Part shown: one piece after another, positions 57,489 to 64,000 of the stretch | Layout: each line of letters begins with the position of its first letter | How positions within the stretch are numbered: position 1 is the first letter of the stretch | Source: a phage | Length of the DNA stretch: 64,000 bases | Sequence record: OZ335962.1 | Strand: one strand, 5' to 3' | Position numbers and translations under genes: made by a program | Notes under the pieces: model-generated | What the model saw: the letters and a program-made list of their open reading frames with translations, nothing else | What the model was told of the DNA's origin: nothing | The model's database searches: none

Positions 57489-58379
57489 TTAAGATTTAAG
57501 TAAATCAACAATTTTAATTAACTTTTCACGCTCAGATTTAGCTTTACTACTCAGTCCAGATAGTCTGAAAATTTCATCATCATATTGTTGAATGGAAATA
57601 TTCAGCTCTTCAATCTGTTTATTAAAATAATCAATTTGTTCAGAATGTTTTTCGTTACTACGAACTGGTACAGGTTTCGTAGGCAATGTAGTTGAACTGG
57701 ATTCATCCGGGCGATAAATTAAAATACAACTTGAACCAATAGGGCATTTTGCACCAGATGAATATTCTAATGTTCCAGCTTCTTTTAAAACTTCAAAAGC
57801 TAAACAGAGATGATGCCCCATATTAACATAATCTGTGGAGCGAGCTCTGATGTAATAATCATCGCCACGAATACTAAATTTAAAGCATTTAAGGTCTTCC
57901 GTATTATTGGTCTTAAAAATCATTTGTTTATCTAGACCTTTAGCTAATCGAGCGCCTAATGCTAATAATCGTCGTTGATTTTCCCACAAATCCACAATCA
58001 TTTGATCGAATGATAATTTCGGCATTAGTCGACCATAAAGGTCATATCCTTTATTATAATTACGAAGGATTTCACTCGCGTTAATACGAGACAATGCTCC
58101 AATTTTATTAAGAGCTTTCATAATGCGATTAGATAAACTCATTCCAGACCCATTTGTTCGCTGTAAATGTTTTTCTAATCCAAATCCAATATCAACTTTA
58201 AACTTATCTAAAATTTCTGCATGAACATCTCTGTCGATAACATTCAAATCCAAAGTTGGGTTAAATCTATGAAAAAATTTATCTGGCTCTGCACTGCGAA
58301 ATACAGTCCATTCATTCATCATTTTTTTATTAACTAAAGATTTAATTACTGCATTGACATTATTAATTACTACTGACAT
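57489..58379 (-). CDS. Coiled-coil protein P4, 296 aa (tandem family)
   Basis: Start at ATG 58379 with SD GAGGAAAAT (track start TTG). Confidence 0.6.
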   Translation of the reverse strand: MSVVINNVNAVIKSLVNKKMMNEWTVFRSAEPDKFFHRFNPTLDLNVIDRDVHAEILDKFKVDIGFGLEKHLQRTNGSGMSLSNRIMKALNKIGALSRINASEILRNYNKGYDLYGRLMPKLSFDQMIVDLWENQRRLLALGARLAKGLDKQMIFKTNNTEDLKCFKFSIRGDDYYIRARSTDYVNMGHHLCLAFEVLKEAGTLEYSSGAKCPIGSSCILIYRPDESSSTTLPTKPVPVRSNEKHSEQIDYFNKQIEELNISIQQYDDEIFRLSGLSSKAKSEREKLIKIVDLLKS

Positions 58380-58386
58380 ATTTTCC

Positions 58387-58794
58387 TCACTCAATTTCAA
58401 TTTTACTAAATATACAGAATAAGATGGAACAGACTATATAAGCACCACACACAGATTGAACTAATACCATTCCAAAGAACCAAACAATATTATCAAACAA
58501 TGTCTGTTTTACGTCGAAAGGACGTAAACTTACAGTAATATTATCACCTTTTTCTATTGAAGAATACATCTCTGGGGAAATATATTCACTAAATCTATAA
58601 CCGTCTTTGAGTTCATATACGGCAATAAACGATAAACTAGACCCTTTTCCTTGCGTTCCTGTAATGGTATTAACTACAGTAACATCATAATCTTTATAAT
58701 GCATATAATCATTAATTGCGTAATAACCATATGCAATTACTACACATAAACAACATATCAATAAATTCAATCTTTTAATTATCAACTGTTTCAT
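58387..58794 (-). CDS. Membrane protein, 135 aa (N- and C-terminal TM segments)
   Basis: ORF with ATG; hydrophobic termini. Confidence 0.55.
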   Translation of the reverse strand: MKQLIIKRLNLLICCLCVVIAYGYYAINDYMHYKDYDVTVVNTITGTQGKGSSLSFIAVYELKDGYRFSEYISPEMYSSIEKGDNITVSLRPFDVKQTLFDNIVWFFGMVLVQSVCGAYIVCSILFCIFSKIEIE

Positions 58795-58849
58795 AATAAT
58801 CTCAATTAAAAGGGCTTAGAACCATTATACCATCCTTGGTATAAAGCGG

Positions 58850-59377
58850 TTATGCGAGTACCGTCTTTAACCGTTCTTCAAACTTCCGAAGAGTATTTTG
58901 GCGTTCAGCTCTTTGCTTTTTGTAAGTTTCAATACGCTCTGAAATGAGAGTGTATCGTTCATTTACTGATTCTTTCATAAAATCAGGAATTTCACGAGAA
59001 GCTTTAATCTCGTCAAATTTATCAATAACAGCTTGCTCTTCAGCAATTAAGTTATCATACATTAAAATATCTTTCTTGATGAACTCAATATCTTCTTGAG
59101 TTACACGAGATAATTTAGATGCTTTATCCTTTTTGTACTGTTCGTTAGTATCACGAGACCAGTGTAATGTACGATTTTTATTCGTATTTTTGTAAATTTC
59201 TACAATACCGATCTCATCAATAATAACGATCCAATTCCAACGGGATTTGTAAATTTGTCCTCCATCAACAGTGATTTCACCTCCGATTGAGATGTCATTA
59301 AAGAACTTGCTTTGTGCCTCAGATTTAAATTTACCATCGTTGTAATTTACCAAGTTGAAAATATCTTTAGCGTTCAT
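58850..59377 (-). CDS. Hypothetical protein, 175 aa
   Basis: ORF with ATG and SD GGAGGAACAG; downstream of early promoter. Confidence 0.55.
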   Translation of the reverse strand: MNAKDIFNLVNYNDGKFKSEAQSKFFNDISIGGEITVDGGQIYKSRWNWIVIIDEIGIVEIYKNTNKNRTLHWSRDTNEQYKKDKASKLSRVTQEDIEFIKKDILMYDNLIAEEQAVIDKFDEIKASREIPDFMKESVNERYTLISERIETYKKQRAERQNTLRKFEERLKTVLA

Positions 59378-59397
59378 TTTCTGTTCCTCCGTAGTTG

Positions 59398-59435
59398 ATA
59401 GGGTAATAGTACCACAGAGGAACAGTCTTGTAAAC
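59398..59435 (-). promoter_or_regulatory. T4-type early promoter
   Basis: GTTTACAAGACTGTTCCTCTGTGGTACTAT (same cassette as 7317-7354). Confidence 0.6.
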
Positions 59436-59437
59436 CA

Positions 59438-59740
59438 CTAAAAGAAACTTCTTTCACAATTTTTTCCACTGAACCATGCACTCACTGCTTTCTTAGTCTC
59501 AGGAGCAGTGTTATCCATAAACCATTCAAAGGCAGCCTTTTTATGATTCTGGAGGGCTTCTCGGGCTTTAATCTGCTCACGGTCTATTAACACTAACATA
59601 TGAGCCTTTCTTGTCACCATGGGCTTCTTATGATTTTTTGAATACTCCCAGTCATTTGTCCATCGCATTGTCGTTGCGAACTTAAATACTTCTTCTTTAA
59701 TTTTAGTTTCGTAAATTTCACGAGCCTTTGAGTATAACAT
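59438..59740 (-). CDS. Hypothetical protein, about 100 aa
   Basis: Start at ATG 59740, 5 nt after SD GGAGG; 3-prime end overlaps promoter cassette. Confidence 0.45.
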   Translation of the reverse strand: MLYSKAREIYETKIKEEVFKFATTMRWTNDWEYSKNHKKPMVTRKAHMLVLIDREQIKAREALQNHKKAAFEWFMDNTAPETKKAVSAWFSGKNCERSFF

Positions 59741-59841
59741 CATTACCTCCATTCACCAGTTTAATTCTAGTCATCTTTTTAATGGCAGTCCATATAATCT
59801 ATTTCTGAACTGCCTTTTTGTCATAGAAGTCCTCTTATGAA

Positions 59842-60810
59842 TTATTTCAGAAGAGTAACCTCAGCGATTTCTTCCCAACCGTTTTTGTCGGTCATAATAA
59901 AGTCAGCAAGATAAAGAGCAGTACGCAGTGAAACATTGCGTAAACGATTAACATTAACTTTCATCCATGATAATGCTTTATAAGTTTCTTCATCAGAAAG
60001 ACCGCGCTTTTGCATCATGTCAGTTGAAAGAATAACATCTTCAACCCTGACCATAATTTCTTCATTAGTATGAACACCCAAATCCAAATAAACTGAGCGG
60101 GACACTAATGCTTGTAAATGTGGAGCAAGTTTAGTACCGCGGTCTAATTCGCGGTCAATGTCAACGTTTGTGATAAAAACAATCGTTCCTTTAAATTCAA
60201 ACTCACGCTCAATGCCTTTTTCTTCTAAGTAAGAAGACGCAGTGCTCCAGCAGACTTTACGGGTCTCTCCAGTGTCCAGAGCGGCTTTTAGAAGATTAAG
60301 AATGTCCATATCAGAGAAAACATCCACATCATCAATCAAAAGGACAGAATTCTCTTCACGATTATTCCAAAGCTGCTCATAAAGACCAATACCAGAGATT
60401 TTACCATTAATGCTTTTATATTCAATGTATCCAATATCATTTGCTTTATTCAAAGCTTTATCTAAAGAATACGTTTTACCAATACCTGCTGCACCAGAGA
60501 TAATCAATGAACGAATATTTCCATTAATAATACCATTCGTCATCATTCCCATAACATTAAATCTTTTATTAATGCGGGTTTTCATATCTTCATACGATTC
60601 TTTAACTTCTTCAACTTTTACACCATCATATGAAATATCTGATTTGTAAACCCAAACACCGCGACGTTTACCGTCAATTTCAACAAAAACTTTACCATCT
60701 CCTTGTGCATCTACCGGAGCATTATCTGGGAACCATTCGCCTAAGAGCTCAAAAGTTCCAGAGATTTCTTTACCGAAGTAGATACCCTTATTGATAGTTA
60801 CAGTTTTCAT
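59842..60810 (-). CDS. P-loop ATPase (AAA-like), 322 aa
   Basis: Start at ATG 60810 with SD GGAGAA (track start GTG); Walker A GAAGIGKT and Walker B LLIDDVD. Confidence 0.65.
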   Translation of the reverse strand: MKTVTINKGIYFGKEISGTFELLGEWFPDNAPVDAQGDGKVFVEIDGKRRGVWVYKSDISYDGVKVEEVKESYEDMKTRINKRFNVMGMMTNGIINGNIRSLIISGAAGIGKTYSLDKALNKANDIGYIEYKSINGKISGIGLYEQLWNNREENSVLLIDDVDVFSDMDILNLLKAALDTGETRKVCWSTASSYLEEKGIEREFEFKGTIVFITNVDIDRELDRGTKLAPHLQALVSRSVYLDLGVHTNEEIMVRVEDVILSTDMMQKRGLSDEETYKALSWMKVNVNRLRNVSLRTALYLADFIMTDKNGWEEIAEVTLLK

Positions 60811-60838
60811 TTTATTCTCCAATTTCACATTTGTTTTG

Positions 60839-60876
60839 ATAGGGTAATAGTATCACACTACTACCCTACTGTAAAC
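60839..60876 (-). promoter_or_regulatory. T4-type early promoter
   Basis: -35 GTTTAC 60871-60876; 18-nt spacer; -10 TACTAT 60847-60852. Confidence 0.55.
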
Positions 60877-60879
60877 AAT

Positions 60880-61143
60880 TTATTTTAATGTTTGCCAAAT
60901 TTTTACTGCTTCGCGACGAGATACTTCTACAGCTCCAAGTTCTACGGCTTTTTGGCGTCGGCGAGCATGTAAGTCATAATGTTTAATGCGTTTATCTTGA
61001 AACCAAGAACGTTTCATTCCTATTGCTTCTGCCATTTTATGAAGCTCTTCAATATCTCCATCAGTGAACATATGACAATTTTTAGTTGGATGACCGCGAA
61101 GTTTCCATCCATGATTCATTAAAACATCTACGTAAACTGTCAT
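60880..61143 (-). CDS. Hypothetical basic protein, 87 aa
   Basis: ORF with ATG; family assignment (DUF4031-like) is from memory, not verified. Confidence 0.5.
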   Translation of the reverse strand: MTVYVDVLMNHGWKLRGHPTKNCHMFTDGDIEELHKMAEAIGMKRSWFQDKRIKHYDLHARRRQKAVELGAVEVSRREAVKIWQTLK

Positions 61144-61288
61144 TGATTCTGCTCCAAATATGTTTCTATAATTTTCTGAGCGAGATAAACTGCGTTATCT
61201 TCAGTTGCATCTTCTAAGAAATTTTCAAAATAAGCTGAAATTTCTTCTGTATCAATCAACTTTTTTACTTCAATTAACGTAGTTTTCA
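61140..61288 (-). CDS. Small acidic protein, 49 aa
   Basis: Hand translation MKTTLIEVKKLIDTEEISAYFENFLEDATEDNAVYLAQKIIETYLEQNQ; ATGA coupling with next gene. Confidence 0.35.
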
Positions 61289-61313
61289 TTTTATTCCCCA
61301 AATCCGTATCAGT

Positions 61314-61401
61314 TGATAGTTGTATAGTACCATAAAGCTTTATGCTTGTAAACCGTTTTGTGAAAAAATTTTGAAATAAAAAAGGGAGCCCGAAGGCTCC
61401 C
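61314..61401 (-). repeat. Promoter + terminator cassette (PeSL-like), near-identical copy of 4011-4101
   Basis: About 70 bp identical to 4011-4081, then GC hairpin gggagcccgaaggctccc at 61384-61401; contains -35 GTTTAC 61348-61353 and -10 TACTAT 61324-61329. Confidence 0.7.
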
Positions 61402-61403
61402 TA

Positions 61404-62417
61404 TCATTTATAATAACTTCGATGGTTTTCAAGATAAATCCTCTCAAGGAAGTCATCCCAGAAACCCATGTCTACTTTTTGCTGCATACCGTTCTTAGAA
61501 GCTTCAATGGAAGCTGCTTCTACTTGATCGACTACATCTTCCAAAAACTCTTGAACAGTTTTAAATGGATGTTTACCCAACTTCACGTCGAGAATAAATG
61601 GAGCATCTTGAAGTGGATAGACTAAGTCACCAGTTTTGTAAATTTCCAATAGTTGGAGTCCACCACGGCAAGCATGACTCAGAGCTTTCCAGTCAATGCC
61701 CTCATTAGCTTCGGCCTTACGAGCGCGTTCGCCGTATTCAGCATCAAGTTTATTCAAAGATTGCTTAAGCTCGATAAGAGAAAGCGTTGTTTGATATTTA
61801 CGACCCAACACGGTGTAGAACGTTTGTGGTCCTGTTTTCTCATGATTATGGAATACCCATTCACAGAATTCGTTCTCTGGAAGACGATGCTTAATATCTT
61901 CAACTTTAGTTCGACGCTGCTTAATGGAACCGTCTTCTTGGTAATCAACCCATTGCTCAGGGATTTGATTAACTACTTTCAATACATCACGTAATGCGGC
62001 CAAACGAGAACCCTTGACACCATATTTAGAAGCTTGCTTGCGAACATATCCTAAATAGGATTTCATGTTAGTCGTATAAAAACGAGAACGATTGTCTTGA
62101 ATAAACTTCCATACATCAGGCAAATCAGATTTAACTACCAGTTCAGGTGGAGTATGGAGCATATCCAATGCTACAGTTTCACCATCTGCTGCTAATTTAA
62201 AGAAATACTTAAGACTGTATAGTTCATGGTCAATATCATCTTTAGTGTTTTTAGATGATGTGTTGTTAGTGTTTTTACTCATATGCTCTTTAACATTTCC
62301 GATAAGAATATCACGAGCAGGAGGAACAAAGATTTCTTTAAAATCTACATCAGATTCTGGAGTAGAAGTTCCATAAAGATGACTACCAAAATAGCTTTTC
62401 ATTACTGTTTTCATCAT
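61404..62417 (-). CDS. Putative nucleotidyltransferase (Pol-beta superfamily), 337 aa
   Basis: N-terminal G-S-x10-D-V-D motif (FGSHLYGTSTPESDVDF); ATGA coupling with upstream membrane protein gene. Confidence 0.6.
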   Translation of the reverse strand: MMKTVMKSYFGSHLYGTSTPESDVDFKEIFVPPARDILIGNVKEHMSKNTNNTSSKNTKDDIDHELYSLKYFFKLAADGETVALDMLHTPPELVVKSDLPDVWKFIQDNRSRFYTTNMKSYLGYVRKQASKYGVKGSRLAALRDVLKVVNQIPEQWVDYQEDGSIKQRRTKVEDIKHRLPENEFCEWVFHNHEKTGPQTFYTVLGRKYQTTLSLIELKQSLNKLDAEYGERARKAEANEGIDWKALSHACRGGLQLLEIYKTGDLVYPLQDAPFILDVKLGKHPFKTVQEFLEDVVDQVEAASIEASKNGMQQKVDMGFWDDFLERIYLENHRSYYK

Positions 62418-62875
62418 TCAGCCTTATATTCAATAACAGGACATACTTTAGCTTTACGCGCTTTTAAAAATTCGACGATAATAGATTTCTTGGGTTGAAT
62501 AGGAGGTAAACCTTTATACGCCCTATCAATATTTTCTACATGTAAAGCATAATCCTTTTTCCATTTATAATCTTTATATTTTTCATGCAGTTGTGCAGGA
62601 ATAACAAATGAACCAATAATAAGTAAAACAAGCAAAATGGCAAGTATAAATGCTGATGGAATAAGAGTCCATAAACTACCAAAAATAAGCCATTTCTGTA
62701 TGATTTCTGCACAGATAATAGTTAGACCTGCGAGTATAGTACATCCGAAAAAAGAAACGAAAAATGCAGGGATAACAATAGACCAAAAATATGCACAAAG
62801 TGTCTTAGGTCGTTTCCATTCGTCGTTAAACATTTTGAATAATTTATAATGCCAAGAGTTTTCATTAATAATCAT
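62414..62875 (-). CDS. Multi-pass membrane protein, 153 aa
   Basis: ORF with ATG and SD AAAGGA; three to four hydrophobic segments. Confidence 0.6.
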   Translation of the reverse strand: MIINENSWHYKLFKMFNDEWKRPKTLCAYFWSIVIPAFFVSFFGCTILAGLTIICAEIIQKWLIFGSLWTLIPSAFILAILLVLLIIGSFVIPAQLHEKYKDYKWKKDYALHVENIDRAYKGLPPIQPKKSIIVEFLKARKAKVCPVIEYKAE

Positions 62876-62877
62876 AA

Positions 62878-63399
62878 TTATCCTTTCATTGAAGGTGTAA
62901 CAGTTGTTAAATACTTAATCATAGCTTCAGCTTCTGATTTTGATAATGAAATTTCTCCATTATTTTGACGAATAGAAATAAAATCCGGATGACGGTCACC
63001 ACCAGCTTTTAAAACACACATATAAGTATCAGTTTCATCTTCAATATTTGAAATGATTGAAGCAGTTCCACATGAATGTGGTTTTTGATAAACTAATACA
63101 GCTTTTCTTCCACCGTTTGACTGTTCATAAACTTTTAATACATCAAACAAATCACTTCTTTTATCAATAGCTAAGATGTTGTTTTCATCTTCAATGTTAA
63201 ATCCTTCGGATACTTCATAAAGTGTCACCCATAAATCGCCAATATCAATAACAGCGTTCACTTTTCCATGACTTTCAAGAGCATGACAAATTTTCTTGAT
63301 TTCATCATAACTCATTTTAATAATATCATCTCCTTGAATAAGAAAGATGTCATTTTTAAATTCAACACGAATTAAACCGCTTTCACTTGAAATAAACAT
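62878..63399 (-). CDS. Hypothetical protein, 173 aa (paralogue of next gene)
   Basis: ORF with ATG and SD GAGGAAA; C-terminal motif IRQ...EA.A...YL..V.P shared with 63406..63963. Confidence 0.55.
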   Translation of the reverse strand: MFISSESGLIRVEFKNDIFLIQGDDIIKMSYDEIKKICHALESHGKVNAVIDIGDLWVTLYEVSEGFNIEDENNILAIDKRSDLFDVLKVYEQSNGGRKAVLVYQKPHSCGTASIISNIEDETDTYMCVLKAGGDRHPDFISIRQNNGEISLSKSEAEAMIKYLTTVTPSMKG

Positions 63400-63405
63400 A
63401 TTTCC

Positions 63406-63963
63406 TCACTTTGAAATCATAGTTGGAATGACAGAATCAAGATAAGTCTTTAGCGCAATAGCTTCGTCTTTGGTAAATGTGACAATATGTGATCGAAAAT
63501 CATCAATTTGACGAATAGTTAAGACATCTCCATCTTCATAACATTTTGATAAATTTAAAACAGTTTCATCATTTTGATTGCAAGCGTTAGTAATAATAGC
63601 ATTGCAATTTTTGAGCCATTTTAAACTATGTTTTCTTTCATTAGAATAATAAAAATATTTAATCTTATCTATAAAACTATCCCAATGGATAACTGATAAA
63701 CACATTGACTCACTTTTAATATTAAATCCTGGGCATGAAGAATAAAAATGAATTTTGTGCTCATCATTGATGCTTACTATTTTATCAGTATAAGGATATT
63801 CAATTTGGGTTAAATGAATGATTTCACTAGGCGTAAAATATAGCATATCGTCTTCTTGTGTCAAACGATACATATTATTTACTTTTTCTATAGCTAATTC
63901 ACCAAAAAGCGGACTAACTTCTAATACTAATCGTTTCATATTGATTCTCTTCGACTCACTCAC
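63406..63963 (-). CDS. Hypothetical protein, 177-185 aa (paralogue)
   Basis: GTG at 63963 with SD AAAGGAG, or ATG at 63939. Confidence 0.5.
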   Translation of the reverse strand: MSESKRINMKRLVLEVSPLFGELAIEKVNNMYRLTQEDDMLYFTPSEIIHLTQIEYPYTDKIVSINDEHKIHFYSSCPGFNIKSESMCLSVIHWDSFIDKIKYFYYSNERKHSLKWLKNCNAIITNACNQNDETVLNLSKCYEDGDVLTIRQIDDFRSHIVTFTKDEAIALKTYLDSVIPTMISK

Positions 63964-64000
63964 AATTACATACTCCTTTGAATAATATCAATAATGTTGT

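Follow-up and report, generated by a model that had tools for sequence, protein, structure and literature searches.

The nrdC.11 gene of a T-even phage as a divergent RlaP-family nucleotidyltransferase beside a small membrane-protein gene

The stretch of DNA analysed here (the window) comprises 64,000 nt of sequence record OZ335962.1 and belongs to a T-even phage (Tequatrovirus). Two adjoining genes on its minus strand are the subject of this study: one for a small membrane protein of 153 aa (62414..62875, minus strand), identified from its open reading frame (ORF), a match to phrog_944, hydropathy and charge, and one for a 337-aa Pol-beta nucleotidyltransferase (NTase; 61404..62417, minus strand), identified from its ORF, its identity to a T4 protein, Pfam, phrog_388 and an AlphaFold2 (AF2) model. 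An earlier note, made from the sequence alone, had reported both ORFs with these positions and lengths, which an ORF check confirmed, and had taken them for a two-gene module resembling the cyclic oligonucleotide-based antiphage signalling system (CBASS). The reading favoured here, to which we assign a probability of roughly 0.6, is that the larger protein, the T-even NrdC.11, is an RNA 3'-end nucleotidyltransferase acting in phage RNA repair between Pnk and Rnl1, and that the membrane gene is an unrelated and dispensable neighbour. Shigella phage vB_SsoM_113 matches the 2.7 kb around the pair at 98.6% identity, and 407 phage records cover 80% or more of it.

At the junction, the 153-aa ORF ends in ...GAA TGA and the 337-aa ORF starts with ATG ATG AAA, with a Shine-Dalgarno-like AAGG just 5' of the NTase start. 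The first ATG shares 4 nt with the membrane-gene stop (ATGA, 62414..62417, minus strand) and the second ATG shares 1 nt; the second is the start annotated in T4, from which the protein has 336 aa. The overlap described in the earlier note is present, but it was dropped as evidence of a translationally coupled module, because 15 of the 97 same-strand junctions in the window have a 4-nt overlap. Overlaps of any length occur at 32 of these junctions, and gaps of 0-15 nt at a further 25. As such, the ATGA overlap reflects the tight packing normal in T4 early regions and not a dedicated two-gene system.

Identity and fold of the nucleotidyltransferase

The 337-aa gene is the T-even nrdC.11, orthologous to the T4 gene. 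Its product is identical to T4 NrdC.11 (AAD42629.1, a 'conserved hypothetical protein' under COG3541/PF10127) at 329 of 336 residues (98%), and the window gene has one extra N-terminal Met codon. Homology to T4 DNA covers 61281-62418 and the order MobD.1 ... NrdC.11 ... NrdC.10 is kept; in T4 as in the window, the gene lies between mobD.1 and nrdC.10 in the nrdC-to-rI early region, with a terminator and a promoter-early stem-loop (PeSL) downstream. The immediate surroundings differ, since the upstream neighbour in T4 is the HNH homing endonuclease gene mobD, whereas the window has a 173-aa y05I paralog and the 153-aa membrane gene, and T4 is without the 53-aa and DUF4031 genes found downstream of nrdC.11 in the window. 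The NTase was found in 1,519 phage records by tblastn, and in a comparison of T4-like genomes published in 2006 the nucleotidyltransferase domain COG3541 was already recognised in most nrdC.11 orthologs. Furthermore, nrdC.11 is an accessory gene, dispensable on laboratory hosts, because the block nrdC.11-mobD.3 was lost in a viable genome-reduced T4 (PMC9825161).

Several lines of evidence identify the protein as a Pol-beta-superfamily nucleotidyltransferase with an intact catalytic triad. Its N-terminus reads MMKTVMKSYFG11S12HLYGTSTPESD23VD25, that is, G-S-x10-D-x-D, and the codons of this nucleotide- and metal-binding motif (G11-S12-x10-D23-V-D25) were read directly from the sequence at 62343..62387 on the minus strand. 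In an alignment of 108 sequences, composed of the window protein and 107 diverse relatives, each about 34-55% identical, G11, S12, S22, D23 and D25 are invariant. The third catalytic acid, for which the earlier note had advised a search, was located by alignment as D85 in 'ALDMLH' (codon 62163..62165, minus strand) and is conserved in at least 90% of the sequences. The motif is real and not a chance occurrence because the five residues are invariant and D85 is this well conserved. The C-terminal half carries a mostly basic conserved set as well, with Y132, R231, K244, H248 and R251 invariant and K131, K135, R138 and K279 conserved in at least 90%.

Profile and structural comparisons agree with the motif. 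The Pfam family PF10127 (RlaP), named 'RNA repair pathway DNA polymerase beta family', was matched with 43.7 bits against a cut-off of 23 (E 3.5e-11), and the PHROGs family phrog_388 'nucleotidyltransferase' with an E-value of 1e-136. The AF2 model built on the 108-sequence alignment is confident (predicted local distance difference test score, pLDDT, 94.9; predicted template modelling score, pTM, 0.86). In it, an alpha/beta NTase domain at the N-terminus is followed by a helical segment and a beta-rich insert (about 155-209), and the C-terminal domain is helical, with a long helix at its end. The neighbours of the model in the PDB are NTases, with HalB as the closest solved structure. The Pol-beta signature claimed by the earlier note is borne out by these results, and a missing NTase fold or inactive catalytic residues, which the same note had named as grounds for abandoning its proposal, were not what the model and the alignment revealed. 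We place the protein as a divergent member of the RlaP (PF10127) branch.

RNA repair as the family context

The activity of the RlaP family has recently been described in a preprint of December 2025 (bioRxiv 10.64898/2025.12.29.696909). Two PF10127 enzymes from Pseudomonas add one or two nucleoside monophosphates (NMPs, or dNMPs) to RNA 3'-OH ends; they favour Mn2+ and the 5' half of a cleaved-tRNA mimic, do not accept DNA or protein as substrates, and partly restore aminoacylation when a tRNA is missing one nucleotide of its anticodon loop. The same study put 'T4NrdC.11' in the RlaP family, in a separate cluster (cluster 5) of the sequence similarity network (SSN) and with its function given as unknown. 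Moreover, it had been predicted that phage RlaPs restore nucleotides taken off by RloC-like nucleases before ligation (Iyer et al. 2021; PMC7824862).

The likeness of NrdC.11 to canonical RlaPs extends over the G-S...D-x-D motif with its third acid, the PF10127 match above threshold, and a build in two parts, in which an N-terminal NTase domain is followed by a C-terminal helical domain with a long C-terminal helix. In addition, the genes of the RNA-repair enzymes RtcB and Pnkp are linked to bacterial relatives of NrdC.11. The two types differ in that only the NTase core (about 80-130 residues) can be aligned; the NrdC.11 type is about 80 residues longer, has the beta-rich insert and a DWKAxSHAxR motif of its own, and often co-occurs with a canonical RlaP in one operon. 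The RlaP link of NrdC.11 is real but partial.

Gene neighbourhoods provide support of an independent kind for the RNA-repair family link. A scan of 185,579 species genomes yielded 80 loci with full-length relatives (32-53% identical), and the gene could be placed in 69. The next downstream gene was a canonical RlaP (full-length PF10127 match, 212-262 bits) in 9-12 of these 69 bacterial loci, and within four genes of the NTase there were RtcB in three loci, Pnkp (kinase-phosphatase-ligase) in three and Ro60/TROVE in two. By a rough estimate, genes for RtcB, Pnkp, Ro60 and RlaP occur about once per genome, so that well under one locus in 69 would have such a gene within four genes by chance. In one locus (L062) the order is Pnkp, NrdC.11-type NTase, RlaP. 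Loci in which an NrdC.11-type NTase is followed by a canonical RlaP are L062, L045, L017, L027, L063, L067, L071, L080 and L081. A same-strand upstream gene with at least two transmembrane segments was present in only 1 of 42 bacterial loci, none of them small, and no membrane gene recurred. The subfamily keeps RNA-repair company and not membrane-effector company, because RlaP, RtcB, Pnkp and Ro60 neighbours recur and upstream membrane genes do not.

From this background a function can be proposed. NrdC.11 would be a template-independent RNA 3'-end nucleotidyltransferase in which D23, D25 and D85 hold two divalent ions (Mn2+ in characterised RlaPs) and which puts one or two nucleotides on an RNA 3'-OH. 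As part of a phage counter-defence RNA repair pathway, it could act after RloC-type host anticodon nucleases, which cut tRNA and also take out a nucleotide, so that a gap is left. Healing by the phage Pnk would give 3'-OH and 5'-P ends, NrdC.11 would put back the lost nucleotide or nucleotides, and Rnl1 would then seal the nick. The proposed partners are those of T4 tRNA repair, in which Pnk (pseT) and Rnl1 (gene 63) act against PrrC. The ends are compatible, as Pnk yields a 3'-OH and Rnl1 requires a 3'-OH and a 5'-P. The same two genes occur together in phage SF2-1 (NTase 99.7% identical), which also encodes Rnl1 and Pnk, and because of this the healing and sealing partners are available to NrdC.11. 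The difference from the known pathway is that the NrdC.11 gene is not next to pseT or gene 63, and its part in the pathway is putative. The role against RloC-type nucleases is one that we infer.

Several results weigh against this reading. The Pfam match is confined to residues 7-135 (profile positions 23-142 of 249), and hhalign against nine canonical full-length RlaPs aligned 81 columns of the NTase core only, with a probability of 48.6% and an E-value of 1.8e-4; D85 is there paired with the conserved E of 'EW' in the canonical RlaPs. Sequence searches of the PDB with the NTase, the 108-sequence profile and a canonical-RlaP profile returned nothing meaningful, in a copy of the PDB that apparently lacks the PfRlaP crystal structure. 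The DWKAxSHAxR motif and the rest of the C-terminal 200 residues occur in the NrdC.11 type only, and this subfamily-specific part probably determines the substrate. The presence of both NTase types side by side in bacteria suggests that they are not functionally equivalent. RNA-repair or RlaP neighbours occur in only about a quarter of the bacterial loci, and in phages nrdC.11 does not adjoin pseT or rnlA; within the window, the neighbours of the NTase are y05I-like, membrane, DUF4031 and AAA genes, with no RNA-repair gene alongside. RNA 3' tailing itself is known from the Pseudomonas RlaPs alone, and its extension to the NrdC.11 type would be by analogy.

The strongest competing explanation is that the enzyme has another target and modifies a protein (AMPylation, as by DrrA or GlnE), a small molecule (as by KNTase or ANT), DNA of the phage or host, or nucleotide pools. 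It would be compatible with the position of the gene near others of nucleotide metabolism (nrdC, tk), with a C-terminal domain peculiar to the subfamily and with the finding of canonical RlaP in tandem with this type of NTase. However, the Pfam assignment and the published placing of T4 NrdC.11 among RlaPs speak for RNA, characterised RlaPs take RNA only and not DNA or protein, and the recurrent neighbours of the subfamily are Pnkp, RtcB, Ro60 and RlaP, so we regard a non-RNA target as unlikely, if still worth keeping in mind. Appreciably less probable is a role like that of the minimal nucleotidyltransferase (MNT) antitoxins of type VII, which AMPylate HEPN toxins, with NrdC.11 nucleotidylating and inactivating a HEPN-type RNase toxin of the host directly, in place of RNA repair. 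The scan of NCBIfam gave sub-threshold noise only, the MntA model reaching 13.2 bits over 18 residues, where the cut-off is 60; NrdC.11 is far larger than minimal MNTs, and in bacteria its relatives are accompanied by RNA ligases and healing enzymes, not by HEPN toxins.

The membrane gene and its surroundings

By hydropathy, the 153-aa protein contains two long hydrophobic stretches (about 25-60 and 62-98), free of charged residues at about 27-56 and 63-94. The N-terminal segment before them is basic, and the C-terminal tail of 59 residues after them is very basic. This charge pattern suggests an N-in/C-in topology with both ends probably cytoplasmic. The AlphaFold model, which is of low confidence (pLDDT 63.9), likewise has two long helices. 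The earlier note had counted 3-4 hydrophobic helices; a hydrophobic membrane protein is indeed encoded, but two long stretches are what was seen, and three or four helices are a possibility. The protein matches phrog_944 at 9e-50. Neither a Pfam family above threshold, nor a PADLOC match at E<=1, nor a PDB chain by profile or fold was found for it, and Foldseek matches of the low-confidence model (E>=1.9) are meaningless.

Relatives of the membrane protein form only 23 clusters in a set of 5.8 billion proteins; those that carry a name are from records of T-even-like phages, with a few labelled E. coli, and no Pfam domain was found in these 23 clusters. Residues S7-W8-H9, P23, L26-C27, Y29-F30-W31 and K138/K141/K143/C145-P146 are invariant in the family, within the motifs SWH...PKTLCxYFW and LKAxKxKxCPxIE. 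The position of the invariant residues at both ends of the protein suggests a small cytoplasmic module, and SWH, C27 and C145-P146 might form a small metal- or ligand-binding module.

The distribution of the membrane gene sets it apart from the NTase gene. Tblastn detected it in fewer phage records (869) than the NTase (1,519), and it evolves much faster: the membrane protein is 48-52% identical where the NTase is 78-79% identical, and about 30% identical where the NTase is 68-97% identical. In Tequatrovirus and Mosigvirus it stands next to nrdC.11 with the 4-nt overlap, in Klebsiella phage Roth19 it is two genes away from the NTase, and in Acinetobacter phage Acj61 and related metagenomic contigs one gene away; phages of Proteus, Cronobacter, Aeromonas and Vibrio have unrelated genes in its place. 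Homology to T4 DNA stops at the nrdC.11 start (62418), is missing over 62419-63380 and resumes at 63381 inside the MobD.1 ortholog (T4 L003, 5551-6358), and T4 mobD sits in place of the 173-aa y05I paralog and the membrane gene. In T2, TadeuszReichstein and CE1 the membrane gene is frameshifted and has lost a conserved N- or C-terminal motif, with the NTase still 99% identical. The membrane gene is an independent, fast-evolving and often lost neighbour in the early polycistronic unit of nrdC.11. The mobD region is also a clean case of a homing-endonuclease cassette swapped against two accessory genes.

The membrane gene is nevertheless kept near nrdC.11 across Tevenvirinae and in Klebsiella and Acinetobacter T4-like phages, which counts against its being an unrelated neighbour and leaves room for a functional link. 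The invariant cytoplasmic motifs (SWH, C27, C145-P146) would also be in keeping with one. Two forms of such a link could be imagined, namely that the membrane protein tethers or regulates the NTase at the membrane, or that it is a channel which an oligonucleotide made by the NTase would gate, to the benefit of superinfection exclusion or lysis timing, and we consider a functional pair of this kind very unlikely. One known system of the second form is Hailong, reportedly described by Tan et al. in 2025, in which an oligonucleotide made by the NTase HalB (oligo-dA) gates or restrains the membrane channel HalA. An equivalent role of the phage pair in superinfection exclusion or lysis timing would find its sole supports in the structural match to HalB (PDB 9dbh, 9dbj) and in the long-term synteny of the pair. 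However, HalB has no sequence similarity to NrdC.11 and, with 217 aa, is without its insert and extended C-terminal domain, NrdC.11 being 120 residues longer with extra domains. Similarly, the membrane protein is not matched to HalA, nor to any PDB chain by profile or by fold of its low-confidence model; it is just 153 aa long and has no obvious cytoplasmic 'crown' domain. HalA would be expected to be an obligate partner, but the two phage genes can be parted: T4 has no membrane gene and T2 a frameshifted one, each with the NTase intact, many phages lack the membrane gene or have it frameshifted, and in some lineages other genes stand between the two. Together with the RNA-repair context of the NTase family in bacteria, these differences make a Hailong-like system highly improbable.

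Least credible of all is the CBASS-like signalling that the earlier note had proposed, in which a cyclic (oligo)nucleotide made by the NTase would activate the membrane protein as an effector: its NTase fold with an intact triad and the membrane gene directly upstream with the ATGA overlap give the pair the outward form of a CBASS cGAS/DncV-like nucleotidyltransferase (CD-NTase; DncV, CdnE) with an adjacent small membrane protein of the Cap15 type, but no Pfam SMODS/CD-NTase, OAS or minimal-NTase family was matched at E<=0.01, PADLOC matched neither protein nor three neighbours at E<=1, the pair is dissociable in T4 and T2, and bacterial relatives of the NTase have RNA-repair genes around them instead of pairing with a membrane gene in the manner of a defence island. 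The structural checks point the same way. Neither list of PDB neighbours of the AF2 NTase model contains a cGAS, DncV, CdnE or OAS chain, so that NrdC.11 has neither a hidden Markov model (HMM) match nor a structural match to CD-NTases. CBASS membrane effectors such as Cap15 are expected to have beta-barrel or nucleotide-binding domains. The 153-aa protein, in contrast, is predicted to be all-helical (in a low-confidence model), with no beta-barrel, no recognisable nucleotide-sensing domain and no effector homology, and the comparison with Cap15-like effectors gave no PDB match by profile or by fold of that model. The fallback offered in the same note, an anti-defence or nucleotide-modifying function, points in the right direction.

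The order of genes on the minus strand is a 185-aa y05I-like gene, a 173-aa y05I-like gene, the membrane gene, nrdC.11, a hairpin, a promoter, a 53-aa ORF, an 87-aa DUF4031 gene, a second promoter copy and nrdC.10. The 185-aa protein (63406..63963, minus strand; Pfam T4_y05I) is the ortholog of T4 MobD.1, to which it is 86% identical. The 173-aa protein (62878..63399, minus strand; Pfam T4_y05I_N and T4_y05I_C) is a second, divergent MobD.1 paralog and has 25-27% identity with both MobD.1 and the 185-aa protein. These y05I-like paralogs, which are only about 27% identical to each other and carry the Pfam label 'putative transcription factor', stand in tandem here, and T4 has a single copy, MobD.1. 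Because the gaps 5' of the membrane gene are only 2 nt (to the 173-aa gene) and then 6 nt, the membrane gene and nrdC.11 close a unit of four or more genes, the start of which lies beyond both y05I-like genes (62878-63963). The best sigma-70-like promoter of the region, TTGACA-16-TATATT with TG (11/12), lies at 63837-63864 on the minus strand, inside the 5' part of the 185-aa ORF, where it might act as an internal promoter of the genes that follow.

Directly after the nrdC.11 stop there is an intrinsic-terminator hairpin, GGGAGCC-UUCG-GGCUCCC followed by U6 (61383..61402, minus strand), which is the stem-loop half of a PeSL. It is followed by a T4 early-type promoter, TTTACA-17-TACTAT with an upstream TG (61324..61352, minus strand), which drives the next unit and is one of three copies, the others being at 60847-60875 and 59406-59434. 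A stem-loop terminator and then a T4 early promoter in an intergenic gap define a PeSL, and this one is found 3' of nrdC.11. The earlier note had placed the pair behind a PeSL cassette; the cassette is in fact immediately 3' of the NTase gene and not in front of the pair. An Rfam scan of 58000-64000 gave only a sub-threshold L20_leader match over the nrdC.11 3' end and terminator (61368-61531, minus strand; 29.8 bits against 58.7, E 0.007), which lies below the Rfam cut-off and is probably due to chance.

Between nrdC.11 and nrdC.10, the 53-aa ORF and the 87-aa DUF4031 gene (60880-61301) have no T4 counterpart. This cassette is flanked by early-promoter repeats at 59393-59436, 60834-60877 and 61311-61354 (a 44-nt family, D1, and a 34-nt family, D2), an arrangement that fits PeSL-mediated module shuffling. 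The NrdC.10 ortholog (59842-60828; 328 aa, with the Walker A motif GAAGIGKT) has AAA and nSTAND-type matches, all below threshold, and stays near nrdC.11 in T4, Mosigvirus, and Klebsiella and Acinetobacter phages.

Implications for phage RNA repair

In T4 the gene nrdC.11 is already known and named, and its family likewise has a name and published biochemistry. A conserved T-even pair with an established unrelated function was among the outcomes that, by the earlier note, would refute its proposal; this holds in part, for nrdC.11 as a conserved T-even gene and for RNA 3' tailing in its family, but not for the phage enzyme itself, whose tailing activity would be assigned by analogy. If NrdC.11 does act in RNA repair as proposed, little would change for its annotation, as T4 NrdC.11 is already annotated as a nucleotidyltransferase, counted as a member of the RlaP family and proposed as a counter to RloC. 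The family of the 153-aa membrane protein, by contrast, is entirely uncharacterised.

For the RlaP family, the NrdC.11 type stands out as a distinct subfamily that is often encoded in bacteria beside canonical RlaP and Pnkp. The occurrence of two Pol-beta NTases in one RNA-repair operon suggests non-redundant activities, possibly two different tailing activities in RNA repair. Finally, Pnk and Rnl1 are also present in T-even phages with nrdC.11, which makes the idea of a 'smart ribotoxin antidote' genetically testable in a model phage.

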